Origin: an uncultured Gemmatimonas sp.
GTDB lineage: Bacteria; Gemmatimonadota; Gemmatimonadetes; Gemmatimonadales; GWC2-71-9
DNA: 64,000 nucleotides
Assembly (NCBI GenBank): GCA_964535105.1
Contig: CAZHSO010000003.1
Location: forward strand, 14,173-78,172
Reading direction: 5' to 3'
Below are positions 2,826 to 64,000 of this stretch, piece after piece (the stretch's first letter is position 1; every line of letters begins with the position of its first letter). The notes beneath the pieces were generated by a model that saw only the letters and a list, made by a program, of their open reading frames with translations, searched no databases and was not told the origin of the DNA. The position numbers and the translations under genes were made by a program.

Positions 2826-2892
2826 GGTGAGCGGTAAGCGGTAAGCGGTGAGCGGGTCCAACCCGCTTACCGCTCACTGCTCACTGCTCACC
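2826..2892 (+). repeat. Stacked tandem-heptamer hairpin (GTRAGCG x4 / CGCTYAC x4)
   Basis: ggtgagcggtaagcggtaagcggtgagcgggt - cca - acccgcttaccgctcactgctcactgctcacc. It fills the 77-nt accD-folC spacer, starting 3 nt after the accD stop. The arms are reverse complements apart from 5 transitions. Confidence 0.9.
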
Positions 2893-14256: not shown

Positions 14257-15647
14257 GCTCGCTCATCTGGCTCGCGGCGGGGCTTGCTGCCGGAGCTATT
14301 GCCGGCTCGCTCATTAGCCGGGGGCGGCGGCCGAAACGTTCTGGGACGGCGCCCCAGCCCACGGCAGAAGGTCCTCCACTGCTGGAGTGGATTCTCCGGT
14401 CCAACGGCGCCATGGGGGCCTGGATGGTCGGCCCCGGCACGCGTGAGGTGGCAGTGCCCACCGGGGGCCTCTCCGACGACGTGGACCGTGTGGTCCGGGC
14501 GAGGCTGGAGCATCAGCGGGTGGGTGACGGGCAGGGCGTCGAGCGGCTGGGCTCGGGGACGCTCGTGTTCGCCAGCCTCGAGGGGCGTGCGGCGGGACTG
14601 CACCTCCCCGCCGACAGCTCTCCCCAGGCAACGGCGACGGCCCAGCGCGACCTCGCCCGGCTGCTGGACTATGACCGGTGGCGACCCGTCCTGGCCGACG
14701 TGGCCAAGGAGCAGGACACTCCCGGCGAGTCGGTGGAAAGTGTAGCGCTCCGTCTTGCGCATCAGTTGGAGCGGCTCCTCGGCGTCGAAACCTGCGTGGC
14801 GCTCGCCGACACCGCCGGCGTTCGCATCACCGGCGTCTCCCTGCGGACCGACCGCCGCCTTCTGCGCACCATTGTCGCCGAAGGGAGCGTGCTGGAGCAG
14901 GCAGCCCTCGGTCGCGCGGGCTCGATCGCCGGGGTAGTGGCGCCGTTCGGCGACGTCCTCTCCAGCCGCCGGCAGCGGCGCGACCCCGCCTTCGTCTGTC
15001 CTGTTCCTGGGGACAAAGTCCCGCTTGGCGCCGTCGCGGTGTGGACGACGGGTGGCGCGGAGCCGGTGGGCCCGCTGCTCGCGGCATTCCGAAGCGCGGT
15101 GGAGACGGCAGGTCCGCGCCTCCTCGCCGCGCAGGAGCGGCGGGCGCTCAATGATGCCGCCATTCGCGATCCGCTCACCGGGCTCCGAAACGGTCGCGGG
15201 CTCGGCGAGGTGATGTCTTCGATCAGCATGGCGACCGGTGCGCTGGTGTACGCCGACCTCGACGACTTCAAGCAGCTCAACGACGCATTGGGGCATCCGG
15301 CCGGCGACGCGGCGCTGGTGCATGTGTCCCGTCTGCTGATTCAGGCAGTGCGTGACAACGACACTGTCGCGAGGCACGGCGGCGAGGAATTCGCAATCTG
15401 GCTTCCGGGGGCGACACTGGAACGGGGCCGGCAGGTTGCCGAGCGGATCCGGCAGGCGCCCGCCTGGAGCGAGTGGAAGTGGCAGGGTGAGAAGCGGCCG
15501 CTGCGCGCGTCGTTCGGCGTGGCGGCGTGCCCCGATACCAGCGCCACCAAGGCGGGCCTGCCGGCCCAGGCCGACGCCGCGCTCTATGAAGCGAAGCGGG
15601 CGGGGCGCGATCGGGTGGTGGTGTTTGAGGAGGCAAGGAGGCAATGA
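14253..15647 (+). CDS. Membrane-anchored diguanylate cyclase (GGDEF domain)
   Basis: N-terminal TM helix (LIWLAAGLAAGAIAGSLI). C-terminal GGDEF domain with an intact GGEEF and an RxxD I-site (RDND) five residues upstream. ATGA overlap with corA. The last codons and the stop lie inside repeat array 15631-15670. Confidence 0.85.
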   Translation: MSSLIWLAAGLAAGAIAGSLISRGRRPKRSGTAPQPTAEGPPLLEWILRSNGAMGAWMVGPGTREVAVPTGGLSDDVDRVVRARLEHQRVGDGQGVERLGSGTLVFASLEGRAAGLHLPADSSPQATATAQRDLARLLDYDRWRPVLADVAKEQDTPGESVESVALRLAHQLERLLGVETCVALADTAGVRITGVSLRTDRRLLRTIVAEGSVLEQAALGRAGSIAGVVAPFGDVLSSRRQRRDPAFVCPVPGDKVPLGAVAVWTTGGAEPVGPLLAAFRSAVETAGPRLLAAQERRALNDAAIRDPLTGLRNGRGLGEVMSSISMATGALVYADLDDFKQLNDALGHPAGDAALVHVSRLLIQAVRDNDTVARHGGEEFAIWLPGATLERGRQVAERIRQAPAWSEWKWQGEKRPLRASFGVAACPDTSATKAGLPAQADAALYEAKRAGRDRVVVFEEARRQ

Positions 15648-15670
15648 GGCAAAGAGGCAAAGAGGCGAAA
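15631..15670 (+). repeat. Single-arm tandem 8-mer array (AGGCAANG x5)
   Basis: aggcaagg aggcaatg aggcaaag aggcaaag aggcgaaa. There is no complementary arm nearby. It contains the stop of the GGDEF gene and SD-like GAGGAGG/AAGGAGG strings, and ends 22 nt upstream of the dipeptidase ATG. Confidence 0.85.
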
Positions 15671-15691
15671 ACCAGAAGAGGAGATTTCCGA

Positions 15692-17002
15692 ATGACCCGG
15701 TGGTTTCGTTTGCTGTGCGCTACCCTCGGCTTGCTGGCCGGGCCCCTCAGGGCGCAGGAAGATCCGGCGCTGCTCGCGCGGGCCCGTGCCATCCACGATC
15801 GGGTGATGACCCTCGACACCCACGTGGACATCAACCCGTCCAATTTCACCGCCGAGCGGAACTACACCCAGCGGCTGCAGATCCAGGTCAACCTCCCGAA
15901 GATGGTGGACGGGGGGCTCGATGCCGTGTTCCTCATCGTCTACGTCGGGCAGCGGAACGACTTCACTCCGGAGGGCTACGCCCGGGCCCACGCCGCGGCG
16001 GTCGAGAAGTTCGAGGCGATCCACCGGCTGACGGAGCAGATCGCTCCCGACCGCATCGGGCTCGCCCTGACCGCCGCCGACGCCAGGAGCATCCACGCCA
16101 GCGGGAAGAAAGTGGCGCTGATCGGCATCGAGAACGGCTATCCAATCGGCACGGATCTAACCAACCTGAAGAAGTTCTACGACCTGGGTGGCCGGTACAT
16201 GTCGCTGGCCCACAACGGACACAGCCAGCTCTCCGATTCCAACACGGGCGAGAGGGACGGGGTGTGGCTTCACAACGGCCTCTCACCCCTCGGCCGCCAG
16301 GTCATCTCCGAGATGAACCGGCTCGGCATCATGGTGGACATCTCTCACCCGTCGAAGCAGTCGATGATGCAGACGCTGGTGCTCACCAGCGCGCCGATAA
16401 TCGCCTCGCACTCCGGGGTACGCGCCATCTGCAATCACTCGCGGAACCTCGACGACGAGCAGCTCCTCGGCCTCAAGAAGAACGGCGGGGTGGCCCAGCT
16501 CGTGGCTTTCGACAGTTATGTGAAGTGCGGACAAGAGTCTTCGGAGCGTCAGCAAGCCCAGGCGGCGCTGTTGCAGAAGTACGGCGTCACCGGTGCGGGG
16601 CGCGTCCAGGGCCTCCCGGATTCGGTGCGCGCCGCCTTCCAGCTGGACATGCAGGCGCTCAACCAGCAATACCCGCCGCCGCCCCGCGCCACGGTGAAGG
16701 ACTTCGCCAATCACATCGATTACGCCGTGAAGCTGATTGGCGTCGATCATGTGGGTGTCAGCTCGGACTTCGATGGCGGCGGCGGCGTGGAAGGGTGGAG
16801 CGACGCGAGCGAGACTTTCAATGTGACGCTCGAGCTGGTGCGGCGCGGCTACACCGAGGAGCAGATCGGGAAGCTGTGGAGCGGGAATCTCCTGCGGGTC
16901 ATGGAGCGCGTGGAAGCGGTCGCGAAGGGGCTGGGGAGCAAGAGAGCTAGGGAGCTAGGGAGTGCGGCCGTTCCCAAGCTCCCTAACCCCCTAGCTCCCT
17001 AG
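15692..17002 (+). CDS. Secreted membrane dipeptidase, peptidase family M19
   Basis: Signal peptide MTRWFRLLCATLGLLAGPLRAQ. M19 motifs LDTHVDI, SLAHNGHSQLSD, VDISHPS and ASHSG. The last ~22 codons and the TAG stop are encoded by hairpin 16934-17008. Confidence 0.85.
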   Translation: MTRWFRLLCATLGLLAGPLRAQEDPALLARARAIHDRVMTLDTHVDINPSNFTAERNYTQRLQIQVNLPKMVDGGLDAVFLIVYVGQRNDFTPEGYARAHAAAVEKFEAIHRLTEQIAPDRIGLALTAADARSIHASGKKVALIGIENGYPIGTDLTNLKKFYDLGGRYMSLAHNGHSQLSDSNTGERDGVWLHNGLSPLGRQVISEMNRLGIMVDISHPSKQSMMQTLVLTSAPIIASHSGVRAICNHSRNLDDEQLLGLKKNGGVAQLVAFDSYVKCGQESSERQQAQAALLQKYGVTGAGRVQGLPDSVRAAFQLDMQALNQQYPPPPRATVKDFANHIDYAVKLIGVDHVGVSSDFDGGGGVEGWSDASETFNVTLELVRRGYTEEQIGKLWSGNLLRVMERVEAVAKGLGSKRARELGSAAVPKLPNPLAP

Positions 17003-17008
17003 TTCCCT
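16934..17008 (+). repeat. Stacked tandem-octamer hairpin (GGGAGCTA-like x4 / TAGCTCCC-like x4)
   Basis: gggagcaa gagagcta gggagcta gggagtgc - ggccgttccc - aagctccc taaccccc tagctccc tagttccc. It spans the stop codon of the dipeptidase gene. Confidence 0.85.
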
Positions 17009-17289
17009 GTTTTCAGGATGGTCTCCTCCCGGAGCTTCATGTCTCGCCGCTGGCTATTCCGCCGCGCCCACCGGCTCTGTCACCCGTGCTGGTCCACCTT
17101 TCCAAGCTCCATGAGGCGCCGCACCAGGCGCACCTCATCGGGAGGGTCTGGGTCACGGTGGCGCTCAGGCAGACCAGAAGGAGGCCTCGGCTGGGGAGTA
17201 GCATGATCGTCACTTATGAAGGTAACAGTGAGAGAGGAGGCGAGATGTGAAGGTGTATTCTACTGTAATTCAAGAGGTTGGCGAGTACC

Positions 17290-17348
17290 AGAGGCAAGGA
17301 GGCAAGGAGGCGAAGTGAGAACCCGTTGCCTCTTTGCCTCTTTGCCTC
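17290..17348 (+). repeat. Stacked tandem-octamer hairpin (AGGCRAGG x3 / CTTTGCCT x3)
   Basis: The 25-position stem has 21 Watson-Crick pairs, 3 G.U pairs and 1 mismatch when folded as + strand RNA. It ends 38 nt upstream of the tmRNA 5' end. Confidence 0.9.
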
Positions 17349-17385
17349 AATCCTCCGTCCCATTATCATTCCCCGAGTTCCAGAA

Positions 17386-17749
17386 GGGGGCGACTGGCTT
17401 CGACGGGTCAGTAGAAGGTGTGGCAGCGTGCCCAGGTCCAGGTCCCTGGTAAAACCGCTTGGAAACGTTCAAATGCCAATTCTGATTTGGCGCTGGCTGC
17501 CTAAGCTGAGCTAGTCTCGCTCTAGGCACCTTCGGCGACGGAGCCCGTCCGGGGCGTCGGCGTCGAATACGCAAAACCGGGCTGGCCTGCTGTGGTCCTC
17601 CGACGCGGCAGGCGAGATTCTTCGGAGGTTCGTTCCGGGAAGGTTGGCCGATGACCGGCTCGGGACCACGCGAAGACACCGGCCTACGCACGTAGACGCT
17701 GCGCTGAAAGCTGGTTCGGACCAGGGTTCGATTCCCTGCGCCTCCACTA
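17386..17749 (+). ncRNA. ssrA: tmRNA (SsrA)
   Basis: 5' GGGGGCGACTGGCTTCGACGGG. The acceptor stem 17386-17392 pairs with 17739-17745 and includes the G3.U identity pair. T-arm reads GGTTCGATTCC. Tag reading frame 17475-17504 is GCC AAT TCT GAT TTG GCG CTG GCT GCC TAA, giving ANSDLALAA. After discriminator A17746 the genome reads CTA rather than CCA. Confidence 0.93.
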
Positions 17750-17757
17750 TCCAGGGA

Positions 17758-17816
17758 GTAGCGAAGAGCGAGTAGCGAGGAGGGGAACGTCCTCTTCGCT
17801 CTTCGCTCTTCGCTAT
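17758..17816 (+). repeat. Stacked tandem-heptamer hairpin (AGCGARG x3 / CTTCGCT x3)
   Basis: The 24-position stem has 21 Watson-Crick pairs, 2 G.U pairs and 1 mismatch on the + strand. It starts about 10 nt after the tmRNA 3' end. Confidence 0.9.
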
Positions 17817-17828
17817 TATTGTCTCATG

Positions 17829-17850
17829 CCCCGCCGGGTTTCCGGGCGGG
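17829..17850 (+). terminator. GC-rich stem-loop downstream of ssrA (possible terminator or processing hairpin; no U-tract)
   Basis: ccccgccgg gttt ccgggcggg forms an 8-bp GC stem with one bulged G and a GTTT loop. It is followed by aatcctctc rather than a T run. Confidence 0.35.
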
Positions 17851-17975
17851 AATCCTCTCGGTGACCCGAGCTGGGGGCGATAGGTCATGGCGAGGGCCGG
17901 TACGGATCTGGCGCTCCCGCTCGCCCGGCTTGCCTCTGCCGGATCAGGGTTGCCCTTCGAGGGTGAGGATTTGAT

Positions 17976-18002
17976 GGTGAGAGGCGACTGCACCCGCCCC
18001 TC
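17976..18002 (+). repeat. Bipartite motif GGTGAGAGGCGAC-N3-ACCCGCCCCTC, copy 1
   Basis: Both the 13-mer and the 11-mer are identical to copy 2 at 20201-20244. The halves can pair (gagaggcg / cgcccctc, 7 of 8). It lies about 80 nt upstream of the TPR gene start. Confidence 0.6.
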
Positions 18003-20414: not shown

Positions 20415-23372
20415 ATGCGCAAGCAGTCGATGGCGCCTGCCGACTCGACGTCCCTCGCGACGAAGCTGCTGCTCCAGAGCAGGTTCGGGCAGCGGCTCCT
20501 TCTGCTCTTTGTCGGATGCGCCATCGTCCCCACCTCCGCCGTCGGCTGGCTGTCGTTCCAGAGCACTGCGGCTCAGCTCACCCAGCAAAGCTGGGAGCGG
20601 CTCGCCTCGGTGTCGGGAGCCGCCGGACACACCCTGTTCGACCGGCTCGATTTCCTGGAAGCCGACCTGCGAAAGTCGGCCTCCCGATTAGCGACCTGTT
20701 CCGAATGTGCGTCCGCGATGCTCTACGCCGCGGACCAAGTCGTGTGGGTCTCGGCCAAAGCGTCGAGGCATCTGGCCGGCGAGGAGGACGACCTCGGGTT
20801 CCTCGTCCCGGACGACCTGCCTCCGCTCGTGCCGGGGCAGAGCACGCTGCTCGCACGCCGCCACGCCGCCAACACCGTCCGGATCTACCTGGTGCACCGT
20901 CTGGCGGGGAGCTCGGAACGGGTCGTCGTCCGGATCAACCCGGCGTATCTCTGGAGCGCCTCCGACGAGGAGGCGCTGCCGTCGAGTGTCAGCCTCACGC
21001 TCTGGGATTCCCGGGTGGGCGTGCTGATCGCATCGGCTTCCGGCGGCGCGACCGTCACGCCTGGTATCGCGGGTGCCCTGGCGCGCGCACCGAGCGGGAC
21101 ATTCGAGTCGAGCGGCCCGCGCGGAGCGTCGCTGGCCTCCTGGTGGGCGCCTGCGGCGATCGGGCGGTCGTTTCTCACCCCGCTGCGCGTGATCCTGAGC
21201 CAGCCGATGGCCGACGTGCTGGCTCCCATGGCGTCGTTCCGGCGTGACTTTCCGCTCCTCCTGGCGGTGGCGTTGCTGACCGTCCTCCTGCTGAGCATGA
21301 GTCAGATCCGGCGGAGCCTCCAGCCCCTCGCGGAGCTGCAGCGCGGAACCCGCCGGATCGCCGAGCGCGACTTCGAGCACCGTGTGCGGGTCTCGAGCGG
21401 CGACGAGCTCGAAGAGCTCGCCGGCTCGTTCAACACGATGTCGACCCGCCTGGCGCGCCAATTCAACGCCCTGAAGGCGGCGGCGCAGATCGATCGCGCC
21501 GTGCTCTCTTCGGTGGACACGGGCTCCATCGCCCAGACCGTCGTCGACCGGATCCCCGAAATCTGCCCCTGCGACGGCCTCAGCATCACGCTGCTCGCCG
21601 CTCCCGGGAGCGCGGACGCGACGACCTGGCGTGCTTCCGCGGGAGGGGTCGAGCGCGAACATGCGAGCGTGCGGTTGGCCGCGGGAGATCTTCGCCGCGC
21701 GCACGAACACACCGACCGGCTGGTCTACACCACCGGCGAGGAAGCCCTGCCCCCGTTCCTCGCCCATTTCCATCGCGAGGGTGAAGTCTCCGAAATCGAG
21801 GCCTTCCCGCTCCGGTACGGCGGAGATCTGCTCGGCGTGCTCGCGCTGCGGAGGAAGCCGGATGAGACGACCGAGGACGACATGATCCAGGTGCGCCGAA
21901 TCGCCGACCAGGTCGCGGTGGCGCTCTCCAACGCGCGGATGGTGGATCAGGTCCGCATTCTCGCCTTCTACGACAGCCTCACCAAGCTGCCCAACCGTGT
22001 GCTCTACAAGGAGCGTCTCGCCCAGGCGCTCGTGCGCGCCGCGCGCAACGACCGGTTCGTGGCGGTGTGCTTCATCGACATCGATCACTTCTCACGCATC
22101 AACGACACCCTGGGGCACGACCTCGGGGACGAGCTGCTCCGGGAAGTCTCCGGGCGCCTCGTGGCGTTGTCGCGGGTGGGCGACAGTGTGGCCCGGATCG
22201 GTTCCGAGCAGGGTGTGGCCGAAGTCTCCCGGCTCGGCGGCGACGAGTTCACCGTGGTGCTGTCCGATCTCACCGACCCGCAGGAATCGGTGCGCGTGGC
22301 GCGAAGGCTCCTGGATTCGCTTCGACGGCCGATCCGTCTCGGGATGCAGGAAGTCTTCGTCACGGCCTCCGTCGGGATCGCGATCTATCCGTTCGACGGC
22401 GCCGATACCGAGGAGCTGCTCAAGAGCGCCGACGTCGCGATGTATCACGCGAAGCAACAGGGCCGCAACACCTACCAGATGTATTCCGCGTCGATGAACG
22501 CCGAAGCGATGGCCCGCCTGCTGCTGGAGCAGCAGCTCCGCAAGGCGGTCGAGGCGCGCGAGTTCACCATCTGGTATCAGCCCATCGTGGATCTCCACAC
22601 CAGGAAGCAGGTGGGCGCTGAGGCGCTGGTCCGCTGGGCGCATCCGGAGCGGGGCCTCCTCTCACCCGCGGAATTCATCTCGCTCTGCGAGGAGTGCGGG
22701 CTCATCGTGCCCCTCGGCGAATGGATTCTCCGCGAGGTGTGCTCGCAGGCGAAGGCGTGGGAAACCGCCGGGTTCGGCACCGTCAGGATGTCGGTCAACC
22801 TCTCCGCCCGGCAGCTCCGCCACGACGGCATCGTCGAGACCGTGCGGACCATTCTTGAGGAGACCGGTCTCCGGCCCCGGTCCCTCGTGCTGGAGCTGAC
22901 CGAATCGATGCTGATGGAGCCCCGTGGCGTCACCGGACGAACCATCCGGGAGCTCGCCGATCTCGGAGTGAGCCTTGCGATCGACGACTTCGGCACCGGG
23001 TATTCCTCGCTCAGCTACCTCAAGAACTTTCCGGCGACCACACTCAAGATCGACCGCTCTTTCATCGCCGGCATCACCTCCGATCCCGACGACTCGGCTA
23101 TCACGACCGCGATCATCGCCCTGGCGAGCGCGATGGAGCTCGATGTCGTCGCGGAGGGGGTGGAGACCGAGGCCCAGGCGAAATTCCTGAAGGATCGCGG
23201 CTGTCAGAAGATTCAGGGCTATCTGGTGGGACGTCCGATGCCGAAGGAGGAGTTCGAGGCGGGGTTGCTGAACTCCGTCCACCGCGAACGGTCGAAGGGA
23301 AAGGCCTTGTCACGCCGAGCGAAGCGAAGCGGCGAAGCCCCACGTTTCCCAGCGGGCTCGGGAGCGGGCTGA
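20415..23372 (+). CDS. Sensor protein with periplasmic domain, HAMP, GAF-like region, GGDEF and EAL domains
   Basis: Two TM segments flank a periplasmic region of about 250 aa. HAMP-like segment [31 protein letters not shown] motif ([10 protein letters not shown]). EAL-domain motifs [22 protein letters not shown] and EGVE. Confidence 0.88.
23317..23338 (+). repeat. Weak GCGAAG-type purine-rich array in the 3' tail of the GGDEF-EAL gene
   Basis: gagcgaagcgaagcggcgaagc encodes part of a non-conserved-looking C-terminal tail (RRAKRSGEA). The periodicity is imperfect and there is no complementary arm. Confidence 0.3.
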
Positions 23373-23622
23373 CGAGACATCGGCCGATCCATCAGCGCGA
23401 AGCAAATTGCCGCCTGTGCAAATGACCAACCGGAAAACTGCTGGGGTGGTCCCGGTAGGTGCCGCACGGCTTCGCTCGGGTCGAAACGCATTGCTCGTGT
23501 CGGTGAACGGAGTCAAACTCGGCGCGAACCAGACTGGAACCGATAGCGACAGGTTCACCTTCGATCTTCCGTAGCCTGACGGCCGCCGATCTCCTGGCCG
23601 GTCGCCAGCGCGTCGGACAGTC

Positions 23623-23650
23623 CTGCGTGACCGTTCACCGTTCACGCAGT

Positions 23651-23658
<8 letters not shown>
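23623..23658 (-). repeat. GTGAACG-type heptamer array / small hairpin just downstream of ppdK
   Basis: On the minus strand it reads gtgaac-tgcgtgaacg-gtgaacg-gtcacgcag. It contains an 8-bp inverted repeat ctgcgtga / tcacgcag and overlaps the ppdK stop codon region. Confidence 0.55.
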
Positions 23659-26313
<2,655 letters not shown>

Positions 26314-49863: not shown

Positions 49864-50314
49864 TCGCGGGCGCAAGGACGCGAAGACGCAAGGACAACAG
49901 CATGTCGTTGCGATCTCCGGTCGATCGGAGCCGCTCCGGCGCCCCGACGTCATTCGTGCGGTCGAGTCGGTGCTTCGCGGCGAGCGGCGCGAAGCGGCGA
50001 TCTCGGTGTCTTTCGTCGGGCGCGACCGGATGCGCGCGCTGAACGCCCGCTGGAAGCGGCGGCGGGAGCCGACCGACGTGCTCGCCTTCGCGCTGACCGA
50101 TCCGCGCGGCGCGCTCGCGGGTGACATCTACATCTGTCTCTGGGTCGCCTCCCGCGAGGCCCGGGCGCGCGGGATCCCATTTCGTCAGGAGCTGCTTCGT
50201 CTCGTGGTGCACGGCGTCCTGCACGTTCTCGGCTACGACCACCCCGCGGGGGCGGAGCGCACCGCGTCCGCGATGTGGCGCCGCCAGGAGCGGTACGTGC
50301 GGGGCGCGCGATGA
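49841..50314 (+). CDS. ybeY: rRNA maturation endoribonuclease YbeY
   Basis: Zn motif HGVLHVLGYDH and TDVLAF block. The only canonical in-frame start upstream of the first conserved strand is the ATG at 49841. That start overlaps phoH by 23 nt and reads through repeat array 49870-49897, so the start assignment is uncertain. Confidence 0.8.
   Translation: MLRTRTADRGRKDAKTQGQQHVVAISGRSEPLRRPDVIRAVESVLRGERREAAISVSFVGRDRMRALNARWKRRREPTDVLAFALTDPRGALAGDIYICLWVASREARARGIPFRQELLRLVVHGVLHVLGYDHPAGAERTASAMWRRQERYVRGAR
49870..49897 (+). repeat. Single-arm tandem 8-mer array (ACGCRAGG-type x3-4)
   Basis: gcgcaagg acgcgaag acgcaagg acaacagc, beginning 7 nt after the phoH stop. The unit is the same as in the first arm of hairpin 54045-54107. 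There is no complementary arm. Confidence 0.8.
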
Positions 50315-52703: not shown

Positions 52704-54043
52704 TCAAGAAGCCGCTGGCGCCGGCCAGGATGCTCGGGCTGCTGCGCGAGGGAAACGTGAGCGAGTTCTTCGCGCGGGCCCGGATGCTCGAGCCGGCGGA
52801 TCTCGCCGATGTGCTGGCCCTGGCGGATGAGGACGAGCGGGTCGAGATCGCCAAGCTGTTGCCGCCCGATCTCACCGGCGAGGCGCTGGTCGCGATGCCG
52901 GACGTGGAGCACGCGGAGGATACCCTCGCGGCGCTGACCACTGAACAGGCGGCCGAGATCGTCGGGGAGATGCCCGACGACGATGCGGCCGACATCCTCG
53001 GCGAGCTGGAGCCGGAGCAGCAGCAGCGGATCCTCTCGGCGGTAGAGCCGGAGGAGCGCCGCACCGTCGAGCGACTGCTCGAGTACGACGAAGAATCTGC
53101 CGGCGGCCTGATGACCGGGGCGATGGTCACCGTGAATGAAGACGAAACGGTGCGCGACGCCCTCGAGAACATCCGGAAGCAGGCCGAAGACGTCGAAGAG
53201 TTTGCCGAAGTGTACGTGCTCGACCGAAATCGCAGGCTTCTCGGCATTCTGGGCTTCAAGCAGCTGGTCCTCGGGGCGCCCGACCGCCCGGTCCGTGAGT
53301 TGATGCAGGAGCCTGACGTGACGGTCGGGCCTGAAATGGATCAGGAAGAGGTCGCACGCCTGATGGCACGCTACAACGTGCCCAGCATTCCCGTCGTGGA
53401 CCGGGACGGTCGCTTGCTCGGCCGGATTACCTTCGACGACGTGTCCGACGTGGTCGAGATGGAAGCGACGGAAGACCTCCTGCGGTTCGGCGGTGTCTCC
53501 GCCACCGAGGACCTCGGCGCCCGCTGGTTCGAGGCGGTGAAGACCCGGCTCCCCTGGCTGCTCGTCAACCTCGTCACCGCCTTCGCCGCTGGAGGGGTCG
53601 TCGCCTATTTTCAGTCGAACCTCAGCCGTTTCATCGCGCTCACGGTGTGGATGCCGGTCATCGCTGGCATGGGCGGCAACACCGGTACCCAGGCCCTTGC
53701 GGTCACCGTACGGCGCCTGGCCCTGGGGCTGATCTCGCGCGACGATTTTCGCCGAGTTATCACGAAGGAAGTTCTCGTTGGCGTGACGAACGGGCTCGCC
53801 ATCGGCGCGGTGGCGACCGTCGTCGCCCTCCTCACCGGCATGTCGGCGATGTTCGGGCTGCTCGTGTTTCTCGCCATGACCGGGAACCTCTTCGTCGCGG
53901 GTCTTGCCGGCGCCGCGATCCCGCTCCTCCTCAAGCGGTTCAACATCGATCCCGCCATCGCGTCGTCCATTTTCGTGACCGCCTTCACCGATGTCTGCGG
54001 GTTTGCGCTGCTCCTTGGGCTGGGGGGGCTTCTTCTGTTATAA
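52700..54043 (+). CDS. mgtE: Magnesium transporter MgtE
   Basis: MgtE N-domain, CBS pair and a C-terminal 5-TM domain with GMGGNTGTQ. Confidence 0.93.
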   Translation: MIKKPLAPARMLGLLREGNVSEFFARARMLEPADLADVLALADEDERVEIAKLLPPDLTGEALVAMPDVEHAEDTLAALTTEQAAEIVGEMPDDDAADILGELEPEQQQRILSAVEPEERRTVERLLEYDEESAGGLMTGAMVTVNEDETVRDALENIRKQAEDVEEFAEVYVLDRNRRLLGILGFKQLVLGAPDRPVRELMQEPDVTVGPEMDQEEVARLMARYNVPSIPVVDRDGRLLGRITFDDVSDVVEMEATEDLLRFGGVSATEDLGARWFEAVKTRLPWLLVNLVTAFAAGGVVAYFQSNLSRFIALTVWMPVIAGMGGNTGTQALAVTVRRLALGLISRDDFRRVITKEVLVGVTNGLAIGAVATVVALLTGMSAMFGLLVFLAMTGNLFVAGLAGAAIPLLLKRFNIDPAIASSIFVTAFTDVCGFALLLGLGGLLLL

Positions 54044-54044
54044 G

Positions 54045-54107
54045 ACACAAGGACGCAAGGACGCAAAGTGAACCACCTTGCGTCTTTGCGTCTTTGCGTC
54101 TTTGCGC
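54045..54107 (+). repeat. Stacked tandem-octamer hairpin (ACRCAARG x3 / CTTTGCGT x4)
   Basis: acacaagg acgcaagg acgcaaag - tgaaccac - cttgcgt ctttgcgt ctttgcgt ctttgcgc. It starts 1 nt after the mgtE stop and ends 13 nt before the meaB ATG. The unequal unit number allows alternative pairing registers. Confidence 0.9.
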
Positions 54108-54120
54108 CTTACCTTTCAGC

Positions 54121-55194
54121 ATGGATCTCGACACGCTCATCGCCGACCTCGCCGCGGGCCGGACTGCCGCGTTGGCGCGCGCGATTTCCGTCGTGGAAAA
54201 CGGGCGGCCGGGCTTCGAGCAGCTCCTCGCCGCGGTGCATCCGCGCCTCGGCCAGGCGCACCGGGTCGGCATCACCGGCCCGCCCGGCGCGGGGAAGTCG
54301 ACCCTCACCCGGCAGCTGGTCCAGGCCTGGCGCGAGCGGGGATACACCGTGGCCGTCGTGGCCGTCGATCCCACCAGCCCCTTCTCGGGAGGCGCGCTGC
54401 TCGGCGACCGGATCCGCATGGAATCGGTCGCGATGGATCGCGGCGTTTATATCCGGTCGATGGCGACGCGAGGCTCGCTCGGCGGTCTCGCCACCACCAC
54501 CCGCGAGGTATGCGACGTCCTCGATGCGGGGGGATTTCAGCGCATCCTGATCGAGACCGTGGGCGTGGGGCAATCGGAGCTCGCGGTCACCGGAATGGCC
54601 GATTCCACCGTGCTTCTGTTGGTCCCCGAATCGGGCGACGCCATTCAGACCCTCAAGTCGGGTGTGATGGAAGCGGCGGACCTGTACGTCGTCAACAAGG
54701 CGGACCGCCCCGGCGCGGACCAGCTCGCGCGCGAGATCGAGGTGACCCTCGGCATCCGAATGGGCAATGCGTTCCGGGGGATGAAGGTGCACCACGGTGT
54801 GGACCCGCAGGGCGCGGCGCACGGGAAGGAGGCAAGGAGGCAAGGAGGAAAAGAGGCATCGGGGCAAGACCCCGTTGCCGCTCCGGCCTGGGAGCATCCG
54901 GTGCTCCTTACCTCCGCGGTGAAGGGCGAAGGCACCGAGGCGCTGGTCGAGGCGCTCGAGCAGCACTACCGCTGGATGCAGGAGACCGGCGAGCTCGCCG
55001 CGCGCCGGACCAAGCGGCTCGCCGCGCGCACGCGCGAAGTGGTGGACCGGTCGGTCCATTGGTGGATCTGGCAGGAGACCCGCGCCGAGGAGCTCCTGCG
55101 CGAGCGCCTCGACGACCTCGCTGCCGGGCGAATCAGTCCCTACGAGCTCGCATCTGACATCGTGGCCGGTTTGAAGGAAGGAGCGCGGGTATGA
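54121..55194 (+). CDS. meaB: Methylmalonyl-CoA mutase-associated G-protein chaperone MeaB/ArgK
   Basis: Walker [10 protein letters not shown] and G4 motif NKAD, followed directly by the mutase gene. It contains an in-frame repeat-derived insertion between G4 and the TSA (G5) motif. Confidence 0.9.
54823..54885 (+). repeat. AGGCAAGG-family repeat element embedded in frame inside meaB
   Basis: gggaagg aggcaagg aggcaagg aggaaaag aggcatcg gggcaagaccccgttgccgctcc. The units are those of 17290-17348, and its agaccccgttgcc matches the agaacccgttgcc loop flank there in 12 of 13 positions. The second arm is degenerate. Confidence 0.8.
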
Positions 55195-56867: not shown

Positions 56868-58031
56868 ATGGCATCGCGTGCGCTGACCGAGATCCGGCGC
56901 CAGCTCCAGCGGCTGGTGCGGCTGCCTGCGGGCAAACACTGGATCGTGAGCTGTTACCTCAAGCTGGAGCCGCGCGATCGCTCGCGGGGGAAGTACCTGA
57001 TCAAGCTCAAGAATCGCGTCCGCGAGGTGATCGAGGCGCTTCCCGCGGAAGGCCTCGACCGCCAGGAGACAGAGCAGGTGATCGGTGATCTGCACAAGCT
57101 TCAGGTGATGCTGCAGCGGCCTGACGCGCTGCCGCCGACGCAGGGGCTGGCCGTCTTCGTCTCCAAACCACTCGGCCTCTTCGAGATCATTCCGCTCCCG
57201 CGGGTGCATCGCTCCCGTCTGCTGGTGGACCGGACAGCGCTGGTGCGGGAGCTCGCCGCGCTCGAGGATGAAGTGGGCCGTCTCCTGCTCGCGGAAGTGG
57301 ACAAGAGCGGGGCGACGATTTACGAAGTCACGGCGTTCGAAGCGAAGAAAATCGCCGACATCGAAGCCACCGCCCGGAAAGGCGGCCGCTTCCACAGCGA
57401 CCGGCACGAGGCGCCAGGCAAAGGGGAGCACGGGTTCCATAACCGGCTCCGGCATGAGCGGGACCAGCTCTTCGACGCCGTCGCCGCGCGGCTCTTCGAC
57501 CTGGACCGCCGGGAGCCCGTCCGGGGGATCGTGCTCGCCTCGGCGGGCAACGAGGCCGATTCGCTCCGGATGTTTCTCCACCCGTACATCGCCGGCAAGG
57601 TCGTCGGCACCGCGCGGATGGCGCGACGGAAGGCGTCGATCGCCGATGTGCACGCGACCGCGCTCGAAGTCCGGGAGACGTTCGAGCGGAAGCTGGAGCG
57701 GCACCTGGTCGCCGAAATGCTCCTGGGGCAGGGCTCCGGCTGGGCCGTGAATGGCATCGGGGCCACGCTCGATGCGCTCGCCAAGGGGCAGGTGCGCACG
57801 CTGCTCGTGCGCGCCGATGCGAGCGTGCCGGGCTTCCGCTGCGGTGCGACCGGGAAGCTCACGCTCAATGCCCGGGATTGCCGGAGCCTCGGAGAGGCAA
57901 TCCCGGTTCCCGATGTGATCGATGATTCGATAGAGGAAGCGCTGCGCCAGCGGATCGACCTCGACGTGGTCTTCGAGCCCGATGCGGCGGAGACGATCAA
58001 CGGCGTGGCGGCGTTGCTCCGGTTTAGATAG
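56868..58031 (+). CDS. Bacterial eRF1/Pelota-superfamily (baeRF-like) protein
   Basis: 387 aa. N-terminal [10 protein letters not shown] block. The central segment [12 protein letters not shown]...[16 protein letters not shown] aligns by eye with the eRF1 segment [25 protein letters not shown], giving GGR in place of GGQ. The C-terminus [10 protein letters not shown] is like eRF1 domain 3. GGAG sits 7 nt upstream of the ATG. Confidence 0.7.
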
Positions 58032-58094
58032 CGAAGAGCGAAGAGCGAAGTGCGAAGAGGTGGTTCCGCTTCGCTCCTCGCTCTTCGCTCCTCC
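58030..58094 (+). repeat. Stacked tandem-heptamer hairpin (AGCGAAG x4 / CGCTYCT-type x4)
   Basis: agcgaag agcgaag agcgaag tgcgaag agg - tggttc - cgcttcg ctcctcg ctcttcg ctcctcc. It overlaps the TAG stop of the eRF1-like gene. The unit is the same as in hairpin 17758-17816. Confidence 0.9.
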
Positions 58095-58110: not shown

Positions 58111-58519
58111 GTGGCGGCACCTCGAACCCGACCGATCAGGATCCTCGTCGCCAAGCCCGGCCTCGATGGCCACGACCGTGGCGCCAAGGTGGTCGCGGCG
58201 GCCCTGCGGGACGCGGGGATGGAAGTCATCTATACCGGGCTGCATCAGACCCCGGAGATGATCGCGACCGCGGCAGTCCAGGAGGACGTGGACGTCGTGG
58301 GTCTCTCGATCCTGAGCGGCGCGCACATGACGCTCTTTCCCCGGGTCCGCCAGCTTCTCGACGAGATGGGCCGCACGGACGTCCTCCTTACCGGCGGCGG
58401 CATCATTCCCCGCGGGGACATCGAGGCCCTGCAGCAGCGCGGGGTGGGCCGCCTCTTCGGGCCGGGCACTCCCACCACGGAGCTCATTCGGTACATCAAC
58501 ACCTGGGCGGCCGCGCATC

Positions 58520-63690: not shown

Positions 63691-64000
63691 TCACAATGCT
63701 GGGGCTGTGGAATCCACAGATTTCACAGATTGCACAGATGAAGAATCTGAATCGAGGGTGGGGCCCGCGAATCGTCTGTATTGAAGTGACGTGGTGCCGA
63801 AATTCAGAAGGAGTCCCCGACCGAGTCTGGTGGCGACGAGGTAGTTGATGACCTGGGCGTCGTCGACGGCGGTGAGTCGATTCGAGGCCTTCAACTCAAC
63901 GAGAACATCACCAAAACATATGAAATCAGCACGATATCGTACCGACAAAAGTGAACCCCGGTACTGAATTGGGATTTCGATCTCCCTCGCATGAAGAATT
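63691..64000 (-). CDS. GxxExxY-family (PD-(D/E)xK nuclease-fold, PDDEXK_3-like) protein, N-terminus outside window
   Basis: The minus-strand frame is open to nt 64000. It reads ILHAREIEIPIQYRGSLLSVRYRADFICFGDVLVELKASNRLTAVDDAQVINYLVATRLGRGLLLNFG, with D...ELK as the (D/E)xK motif. GC content is visibly lower than in neighbouring genes. The C-terminal ~25 aa are encoded by the 9-mer array. Confidence 0.75.
   Translation of the reverse strand, partial: ILHAREIEIPIQYRGSLLSVRYRADFICFGDVLVELKASNRLTAVDDAQVINYLVATRLGRGLLLNFGTTSLQYRRFAGPTLDSDSSSVQSVKSVDSTAPAL
63705..63745 (-). repeat. Tandem 9-mer array (TNCACAGAT x3 on + strand) with a short inverted unit
   Basis: ctgtgga-a-tccacagat ttcacagat tgcacagat. 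It lies within the 3' tail of the GxxExxY ORF, and the palindrome ctgtgga/tccacag forms the inner end. Confidence 0.75.

Follow-up and report, generated by a model that had tools for sequence, protein, structure and literature searches.

Families of tandem-repeat palindromes at gene ends in a Gemmatimonadales clade and the turnover of their units at conserved sites

A chromosomal stretch of 64,000 nucleotides from an uncultured soil Gemmatimonas sp. (contig CAZHSO010000003.1; the whole stretch is referred to below as the window) carries palindromes whose arms are themselves tandem arrays: a run of a 7-8-nt unit, (unit)n, is followed by a short loop and then by the complementary run, (complement of unit)n. 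These elements sit at gene ends with a strict polarity, their units fall into families, and the pairing of their arms is kept. Although the sites are conserved, the units at them turn over rapidly, and an abundant family has been adopted repeatedly. Taken as a whole, they may be read, with about an even chance that this is correct, as lineage-specific families of tandem-repeat palindromes placed after stop codons in one Gemmatimonadales clade, which would act as stem-loops at the 3' ends of transcripts and would evolve by slippage combined with overwriting between arrays. An earlier note, prepared from the letters of the window only, had proposed that units are copied between loci, and its claims are taken up below where the results bear on them.

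Architecture of the elements

Six two-armed hairpins and three essentially one-armed tracts of related units are present in the window. In single-strand folding, the two-armed elements reach -41 to -58 kcal/mol (z -3.9 to -8.8), and the tracts at 15630-15669, 49869-49900 and 54826-54858 give no significant fold. The elements are listed here together with the gene for transfer-messenger RNA (tmRNA), which two of them flank.

2826..2892, + strand: two-armed hairpin, unit GGTAAGC/GGTGAGC (7 nt), -57.7 kcal/mol, z -8.8; an AccD-like carboxyltransferase gene stops just before it (2822), and a FolC/Mur-ligase-like gene starts after it (ATG at 2900)
15630..15669, + strand: one-armed purine tract, (GAGGCAAR) x5, -5.6 kcal/mol, z +1.1
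16927..17006, + strand: two-armed hairpin, unit AGGGAGCT (8 nt), -51.9 kcal/mol, z -3.9
17291..17348, + strand: two-armed hairpin, left arm GAGGCAAG x2.6, right arm TTGCCTCT x2.9, -44.3 kcal/mol, z -7.6
17386..17749, + strand: tmRNA gene (ssrA), found with ARAGORN and Rfam RF00023 (139 bits)
17757..17817, + strand: two-armed hairpin, unit AGCGAAG/AGCGAGT (7 nt), -46.8 kcal/mol, z -7.1
49869..49900, + strand: mostly one-armed tract, ACGCAAGG/ACGCGAAG, weak fold
54042..54110, + strand: two-armed hairpin, unit GACGCAAG (8 nt), apical loop GTG-AAC-CAC, -40.9 kcal/mol, z -7.3
54826..54858, + strand: one-armed tract in the MeaB coding sequence, AAGGAGGC x4, in frame and translated (11 residues)
58030..58094, + strand: two-armed hairpin, unit AGCGAAG (7 nt), -42.3 kcal/mol, z -5.6
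23630..23659, + strand: short array ACCGTTC/GTGAACG where the minus-strand PPDK gene has its 3' end, no significant fold, of uncertain membership

The tracts listed in the earlier note lie where it had placed them, with periods of 7 or 8 in Tandem Repeats Finder (TRF). Arrays of period 8 are called at 15630-15666, 16926-16962 and 16972-17008, 17291-17311 and 17326-17348, 54044-54066 and 54078-54110, and 54826-54858, and those of period 7 at 2826-2855 and 2863-2892, 17756-17782 and 17792-17814, and 58030-58059 and 58071-58093. The arms of an element often differ at one fixed position per unit (e.g., AAGG vs AAAG or GAGG vs GTGG), and the number of units is often unequal between the two arms.

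Unit families recur above chance

Searched as tandem pairs in the window, GAGGCAAG x2 gives 19 matches with at most three mismatches (0.69 expected), AGCGAAG x2 gives nine with at most two (0.96 expected) and GACGCAAG x2 gives 11 with at most three (1.09 expected); for none of these units did any of 100 shuffles reach the observed count. Each unit family is represented by two to three loci within the window. A weak AGCGAAG copy that had also been proposed, at 23317-23338, lies within a GGDEF-EAL coding sequence and fails the two-mismatch search.

The same pattern extends beyond the window. A scan of metagenome contigs with the pattern GAGGCAARGAGGCAARGAGGC matched at least 120 stretches, from which 54 contigs with at least 64% G+C were used; all counts from these contigs, here and below, are among the matches listed. 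Four of the 54 align to loci of Gemmatimonadota metagenome-assembled genomes (MAGs). Hairpins of the form (GAGGCAAR)n-loop-(YTTGCCNC)n occupy dozens of different loci on these contigs, which are also dense in other arrays, at about one per 1-2 kb (by period, 123 arrays have 7 nt, 124 have 8 nt, 21 have 9 nt and two have 10 nt). The repertoire is limited and recurrent (GTGAGAG, GTGAGAC, AGTGGTC, AGCGAAG, AGGGAGCC, GACGCAAA and GGCTGAA), and several loci of one family may be found on a single contig (e.g., L129, L126 and L115; related loci and contigs are given as L numbers). In a set of 145 elements, from which the ascertained family and homologous contig pairs had been left out, 77 pairs share an identical unit, compared with 6.9 expected and a maximum of 17 in 200 composition-preserving shuffles. 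Sharing is thus about 11 times the expected level, which indicates that the unit families are real and lineage specific, and the statement that the same unit recurs at distant loci is upheld for the window. Units that had been noted as single in the window are so there, but some of them recur elsewhere: AGGGAGCT is found in L129, L141, L142 and L203, and ACCGTTC x4 lies beside a GAGGCAAG array in L107. Across Gemmatimonadota MAGs the distribution of arrays is patchy, and each lineage has its own repertoire. Arrays are dense in the window clade, L011, L012, L017 (11 arrays in 17 kb), L051 and L059, and most Gemmatimonadaceae loci are without them.

A purely local origin would account for recurrence in a different way. 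Each hairpin would grow in place by slippage from a repeat in a terminator stem, and units would recur through limits of composition or function (purine-rich, Shine-Dalgarno-like and G.U-tolerant), with nothing copied between loci. We regard this as unlikely. The excess of identical-unit pairs survives shuffles that preserve composition, the number of unrelated units that coexist is above 15 (GTGAGAC, AGTGGTC, GGCTGAA, AGGGAGCC and others), which makes a single functional motif unlikely, and repertoires differ by lineage. Nonetheless, several observations would suit local growth. No loops shared between loci of one family were found, neighbouring states are only one or two bases apart (e.g., GGCGCAAG, GACGCAAG and GAGGCAAG, or AGGCAAT vs AGGCAAC), both unit types occur together within the mixed arrays of L096 and L176, and loops larger than 3 nt are poorly handled by mismatch repair (PMC4060949).

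As for loops, a GAACC/GGTTC-type motif occurs in some GAGGCAAG and AGCGAAG hairpins (54042 and 58030 in the window; L005, L122 and L125), but it was rejected as a family signature, as only 7 of 65 elements carry it at the apex. The earlier note had attached weight to a 12 of 13 match between the loop flanks of two copies (17318 vs 54867). The match exists; however, a third one with at most one mismatch lies in an unrelated gene at 1443, and the closest relatives have ACTGCC/GCTGGC where the window has GTTGCC, so that it tells little about copying.

Two further observations concern the range of these structures. In many hairpins (L112, L116, L125, L128, L134, L160, L163, L171 and L178), a GAGGCAAG arm is paired with the complement of GTGGCAAG, which leaves one A.A (or T.T) mismatch per 8 bp at a constant position of the unit. 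Tandem-unit hairpins are also found beyond Gemmatimonadota, i.e., on contigs of unknown origin with 33-37% G+C (L094, L119 and L194), in an Acidobacteriota MAG (L023, 13739-13862, with GATCTGGT x6 per arm over 124 nt) and in a Binatia MAG (L068, 3609-3673, with TGGAGTGA).

Turnover of units at orthologous sites

Syntenic loci of relatives were obtained through MeaB homologues (L005-L007 and L208-L210) and through the M19 dipeptidase (L008-L087). The MeaB homologues carry Gemmatimonadales names, and the nearest genomes are Gemmatimonadales/Gemmatimonas MAGs. Four independent assemblies of the same population (L001-L004) are identical to the window through all arrays; the loci are thus not hypervariable at the strain level. 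Phase-variable contingency simple sequence repeats (SSRs) were ruled out on this identity and on the location of the arrays, which lie 3' of stops and not in promoters or 5' coding parts. An assembly artefact was rejected as well, since independent JGI, ENA, NCBI and Logan assemblies have the elements at orthologous positions, with sensible variation.

At a greater distance the picture changes. The window and L005 are 93.4% identical over 18.9 kb, with five segments below 60% identity: two in the N-terminus of YbeY, the 3' part of the hairpin between MgtE and MeaB (MgtE|MeaB), the tract in the MeaB linker and the whole hairpin between the baeRF-like gene and the B12-binding mutase subunit (baeRF|B12). 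The low-identity region of YbeY (49937-50005) lies directly downstream of the ACGCAAGG tract, and the annotated start of YbeY varies among relatives. At the baeRF|B12 site, all four genomes have a period-7 hairpin but the units differ (AGCGAAG in the window, AGGCAGT/AGGCAAT in L005, AGGAGTC in L006 and AGGCAAC in L007). The 3' end of the M19 gene has five units in five genomes, with periods of 8, 7, 7, 7 and 9: AGGGAGCT in the window, AGCGAAT in L008, one-armed GGGAAGA in L010, GGTGAGA in L011 and one-armed CAACCGCCC in L012; L009 and more distant genomes have no array there. After the tmRNA gene, the window has AGCGAAG, L008 has AGCGAGT (CTACTCG x4) and L010 has GGGCAGC followed by a T-run.

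The MgtE 3' site could be followed through eight genomes. It carries GGCGCAA/GACGCAA-type units in the window, L209, L210, L208 and L007, and GAGGCAAG-type units in L005, L006 and L176. A rough MgtE tree (900 nt) has the form (L176,(L006,(L007,((window,(L209,L210)),(L208,L005))))), and by this topology the site has switched to GAGGCAAG independently on two or more occasions. The L006 site is composite: the old TTGCGTC right arm stands after a GAGGCAAG hairpin that is itself complete. Despite such changes, the stem is kept in an alignment fold of seven MgtE|MeaB orthologues, in which 7 of 28 pairs show compensatory double changes. The apical loop is inverted, being GTGAACCAC in the window (54068-54078) and GTGGTTCAC in L006 (9912-9922), a flip that recombination or template switching between arms would be expected to produce.

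These comparisons agree with the earlier statement that independent slippage would not suffice: units of other families stand at orthologous sites whose flanks are 93% identical, MgtE sites have switched, and the L006 site is composite. Comparing MAGs, as had been recommended, does reveal replacement of units at fixed sites, with L001-L004 identical. For a purely local origin, the conserved periods of the MgtE|MeaB (8 nt) and baeRF|B12 (7 nt) sites are favourable, whereas the concurrent change of unit and period at the M19 3' end and the complete new hairpin beside an old right arm in L006 are difficult to accommodate.

Some arrays are simply inherited. The tract at 15630 is nearly identical in L008 (9905-9945) and better conserved than its surroundings, and the MeaB tract is found within a subclade (L208, L209 and L210) and in several database homologues but is absent in L005-L007. 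Among close relatives, the MeaB linker that contains it (54801-54883, codons ~228-254, after the G-domain) has a hypervariable length and sequence; four to five in-frame GAGGCAAG units lie in it in one subclade, and L209 has four perfect units. The hairpin upstream of the tmRNA gene (17291) is absent in L008, and the tract at 49869 is partly conserved in L005-L007 and L208.

Presence or absence between relatives, as with the 17291 hairpin in L008 and the MeaB tract in L005, is one of the reasons for which non-autonomous mobile elements must be considered. Copies of the type of REPINs (doublets of repetitive extragenic palindromes, REPs, that form a hairpin) or of MITEs (miniature transposable elements with inverted repeats) would be inserted after genes by a trans-acting enzyme, i.e., a REP-associated tyrosine transposase (RAYT), an IS200-like HUH transposase or similar. 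High copy number, palindromic extragenic hairpins at gene 3' ends, many families per genome and a patchy, lineage-specific distribution across Gemmatimonadota would all be in keeping with this explanation, which we nevertheless hold to be improbable. No target-site duplication was found at the boundaries of replaced or extra segments (window vs L005; L006 vs L007), nor any clean insertion boundary, and the changes resemble replacements. Within a family, neither loops nor ends show conservation, and no conserved terminal tetranucleotide is present. Around the 58 GAGGCAAG arrays among the matches listed, no conserved flank or end motif besides stop triplets was found; the search for duplications or a conserved insertion context that the earlier note had advised thus yielded nothing beyond proximity to stop codons. 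No transposase, reverse transcriptase or RAYT is encoded among the ~45 open reading frames (ORFs) of the window, although the rest of the genome could hold one. RAYTs are also usually far fewer per genome than the families seen here. The lack of duplications, of shared loops or ends and of a transposase in the window argues against classical transposition, and the transposition-like spread suggested earlier is not sustained, loops and flanks being different between loci with the same unit. A MITE in the strict sense was rejected, as terminal inverted repeats with a target-site duplication belong to its definition and no duplication was seen at the window/L005 and L006/L007 boundaries.

Position, polarity and possible function

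Measured from a stop codon or the end of the tmRNA gene, the first base of the window's hairpins falls at -1 to +8 nt. By hand count with crude gene calls, 23 of the 47 elements that have a left gene lie within 10 nt of its stop, and a raw tally of gene orientation gives 46 elements between co-directional or convergent genes and four between divergent ones, two of these four being gene-call errors. A stop triplet is present at -7 to +3 of the array start in 23 of the 58 GAGGCAAG arrays among the matches listed (40%), compared with 12.6% of controls (p = 2e-7). The polarity is strict: the purine-rich arm comes first in every window hairpin and in 27 of the 27 two-armed GAGGCAAG elements among the matches listed, and the reverse order does not occur.

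Several elements are interwoven with the ends of their genes. The GGDEF gene ends inside the 15630 tract, where a variant unit (GAGGCAAT|GA) forms its TGA stop (15645-15647), so that the protein terminates with ...EEARRQ* within the array; the tract ends 22 nt before the ATG of the M19 dipeptidase gene (15692). The M19 ORF in turn runs through the 16927 hairpin and stops at 17002, within the right arm; its last ~25-30 codons (from 16915) are hairpin sequence and are wholly different in L008. The 49869 tract lies between the stop of PhoH (49863) and the start of YbeY, with a lone complementary unit, GTCGTTGC, overlapping the start-codon region. The 54042 hairpin takes up the space from the MgtE stop (54043) to the MeaB ATG (54121), and the TAG stop of the baeRF-like gene (58029-58031) overlaps the first unit of the 58030 hairpin, after which the B12-binding mutase subunit begins at 58111.

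The two hairpins that flank ssrA are of particular interest. The first ends 38 nt upstream of the tmRNA gene and overlaps a predicted sigma-70-like promoter (TTGCCT-16-TATCAT, 17342-17369, + strand, ~17 nt 5' of the mature tmRNA 5' end), whose -35 hexamer is the last right-arm unit. At that position L008 reads TTGCGT-16-TACTAT and has no hairpin, and on the hypothesis of local origin the -35 box may have seeded the right arm. The second hairpin begins 8 nt past the tmRNA end (17749), is followed by ATTATTG and is placed as a putative ssrA terminator. A hairpin 3' of the tmRNA gene is found in three genomes (the window, L008 and L010), with a T-run in L010 only, and these three cases make up the best positional argument for a possible 3'-end role. 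A canonical intrinsic terminator was rejected, since a scan of 15500-18000 gave no GC-rich stem-loop with a U-run directly behind it.

From their placement, the arrays may be taken as stem-loops at transcript 3' ends that would terminate transcription or stabilise the upstream RNA. Because the purine arm comes first, the arm transcribed last would be pyrimidine-rich in either direction, and pairing in several registers might then permit termination without a U-tract; the tandem arms might thus constitute a register-flexible, U-tract-independent, bidirectional terminator.

A different function would be that of binding-site arrays for a protein or RNA, with the ribosome (AAGGAGG in GAGGCAAG matches the Shine-Dalgarno sequence and has a complement that resembles the anti-Shine-Dalgarno sequence) or a post-transcriptional regulator as candidates. 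The most abundant unit contains AAGGAGG, one-armed tracts lie just 5' of start codons (15630/M19 and 49869/YbeY), the 15630 tract is conserved above its surroundings, and regulator binding has been proposed for TAACTGA heptamer repeats (MacGregor, PMC4679880). However, most families (AGCGAAG, GTGAGAC, AGTGGTC and GGTAAGC) have no Shine-Dalgarno-like core, unrelated units are swapped freely at one site among close relatives, which is unexpected for a sequence-specific site, and in two-armed elements the motif would be hidden within a stem of -40 to -58 kcal/mol. We therefore think it very unlikely that binding sites explain the arrays.

How the arrays may evolve

It is reasonable to return to the reading preferred at the outset, i.e., gene-end stem-loops shaped by slippage and by overwriting between arrays. 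Transcripts would form very stable 3'-end stem-loops that terminate transcription or protect the upstream RNA. Each arm would behave as a tandem array of its own, kept homogeneous as slipped-strand events add and remove units, with arm-arm pairing maintained despite this separate evolution. The centre of the palindrome would be unstable, so that loops change and even invert. Occasionally, a whole array would be overwritten with units of another array family of the same genome, presumably by gene conversion over short patches or by template switches from array to array, and such overwriting would produce the multi-copy unit families. Spread would accordingly amount to copying between loci and not to transposition of a discrete element. 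Of the mechanisms offered in the earlier note, templated copying or gene conversion fits best, provided that it is combined with slippage within arms; the copying step itself is inferred.

Several points weigh against this reading. No donor-recipient pair with a common specific pattern of unit variants was found in the material, and conversion between loci was never directly caught. GAGGCAAG and GACGCAAG differ by one base, and some switches could have passed through mutation followed by homogenisation. The related sequence surveyed amounts to ~1.5 Mb and not to a whole genome, and most metagenome contigs were placed in the clade by G+C content and element type, with four placed by homology. 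The role in termination or stabilisation is drawn from position only; a simple terminator scan of 15500-18000 returned no hairpin with a T-run, and the sense-strand excess of G.U over A.C (29 vs 19, p = 0.19) is not significant, so that selection at the RNA level is not demonstrated.

A bolder version may also be put forward, in which tandem-unit palindromes are installed at gene 3' ends, purine arm first, from a genome-wide repertoire by active templated rewriting that is distinct from both transposition and slippage and that depends on a dedicated enzyme or on hairpin-directed template switching. This seems to us a long shot, but an active copying mechanism, if true, would sharply raise the interest of the system.

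Gene context of the window

The window (67.6% G+C) has the gene content of a housekeeping chromosome. Among its genes, with Pfam assignments for the AccD-like and FolC-like ones, are those for PBP, FtsW/RodA, AccD-like and FolC-like proteins, HisRS, ProRS, GuaA, Dus, CorA, GGDEF protein, M19 dipeptidase, tmRNA, PPDK, purine biosynthesis, LexA, AspRS, PhoH, YbeY, MgtE, MeaB and methylmalonyl-CoA mutase. Among the Rfam covariance models run over the window, only tmRNA reached its gathering score.

The 16927 hairpin lies between M19 and a convergent pseudogene remnant (17005-17140, minus strand) of ~53 codons that corresponds to the C-terminus of an S9-peptidase-like gene. Interrupted by an in-frame stop and showing an 8-codon gap, the remnant is 66% identical to the intact convergent gene in L009. 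In L008 this segment is wholly lost, and the M19-tmRNA spacing is therefore ~300 nt longer in the window than in L008. Likewise, the convergent intergenic region between GGDEF-EAL and PPDK (23372-23651) spans ~280 nt in the window vs ~40 nt in L008; it holds GTGAACGG at ~23505 and a complementary array at 23630, ~110 nt apart. At 63715-63739, a direct 9-nt repeat (CACAGATTT/CACAGATTG/CACAGAT) has no inverted partner and is identical at 25 of 25 positions in L005 (19024-19048), though identity over the 290 nt around it is only ~75%; it should probably be seen as a regulatory binding site, not as a hairpin element.

The elements also affect annotation. They extend or truncate ORFs (read-through of M19, stops within units); one supplies a -35 box, and another is translated in MeaB. 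In addition, two questions become testable in the clade: does gene conversion or template switching carry short repeats from locus to locus, and can hairpins that lack a U-tract serve as terminators in high-GC phyla that have received little study?

Comparison with known systems

The elements of this clade differ from REPs/REPINs, MITEs, attC sites, contingency SSRs and canonical terminators in at least one tested defining feature of each. Integron attC sites were rejected on the sequences at hand, where the genes are syntenic housekeeping genes and no R'/R'' core sites were noticed, no dedicated search having been made. REPs, bacterial interspersed mosaic elements (BIMEs) and REPINs have a fixed family consensus, a conserved GTAG end, a cognate RAYT and no internal tandem periodicity; REP transcripts form stem-loops that stabilise upstream mRNA or attenuate read-through, and several families may be found per genome. 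The present elements resemble them as short, imperfect extragenic palindromes of high copy number at gene 3' ends. Unlike REPs or REPINs, however, they have no conserved palindrome consensus and no GTAG-type end (58 GAGGCAAG arrays, among the matches listed), and their loops are heterogeneous.

The closest known description is that of inverted pairs of GGGAATC heptamers in Xanthomonas. These heptamers occur at ~186 sites per genome, ~90% of them intergenic and usually with 2-6 copies (Rehm et al. 2015, PMC4692102). Their mean distance is 28 nt from the upstream ORF vs 160 nt from the downstream ORF, and 7-8% lie between divergent genes; 70-75 per genome form convergent inverted pairs that are capable of forming stem-loops, with the purine/G-rich array first, and 83% are in the same gene context between species, with changes in length (PMC4692102). 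In Nostoc, only a few inverted pairs were seen (Rehm et al., PMC4692102). The likeness includes tandem units of ~7 nt in at least two copies, location near the end of the upstream ORF, rarity between divergent genes, inverted pairs and retention of the site. However, Xanthomonas has one G-rich unit that was studied as a G-quadruplex former, whereas many unrelated 7-/8-nt units occur here, and units GAGGCAAG, GACGCAAG, AGCGAAG and GGTAAGC contain no G-runs of three or more and thus have no G-quadruplex potential. The two-armed form is also common here alongside one-armed tracts, units are exchanged at orthologous sites, and the phylum is Gemmatimonadota.

TAACTGA direct heptamers of Beggiatoaceae, cyanobacteria and Bacteroidetes form more than 100 intergenic sets per genome (MacGregor 2015, PMC4679880). 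Only one indirect case is found among 170, and the repeats lie just upstream of starts, where they were proposed as sites for a translational regulator (PMC4679880). Patchy phylogenetic distribution, the lack of an evident transfer mechanism and the presence of some copies inside ORFs are common to these repeats and to the elements described here, but the latter are mostly palindromic and adjoin stop codons. Mazel and colleagues reportedly described, in 1990, cyanobacterial short tandemly repeated repetitive (STRR) heptamers in Calothrix, Nostoc and Anabaena, with several families per genome that are dispersed between genes and common to related species; STRRs are also cited in PMC4692102. The present elements likewise comprise several heptamer families at many intergenic sites, with families common to related species, whereas STRRs are mostly long one-armed arrays, and we know of no description of their replacement at orthologous sites.

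No description of such elements was found in the literature on repeats of Gemmatimonadetes/Gemmatimonadota, and, to our knowledge, the origin and function of tandem 7-nt gene-end repeats in Xanthomonas, cyanobacteria and Beggiatoaceae have never been explained. Within this context, the Gemmatimonadales elements present a fuller case, with many coexisting unit families, a strict polarity and an exchange of units with the architecture kept at ~93% flank identity.

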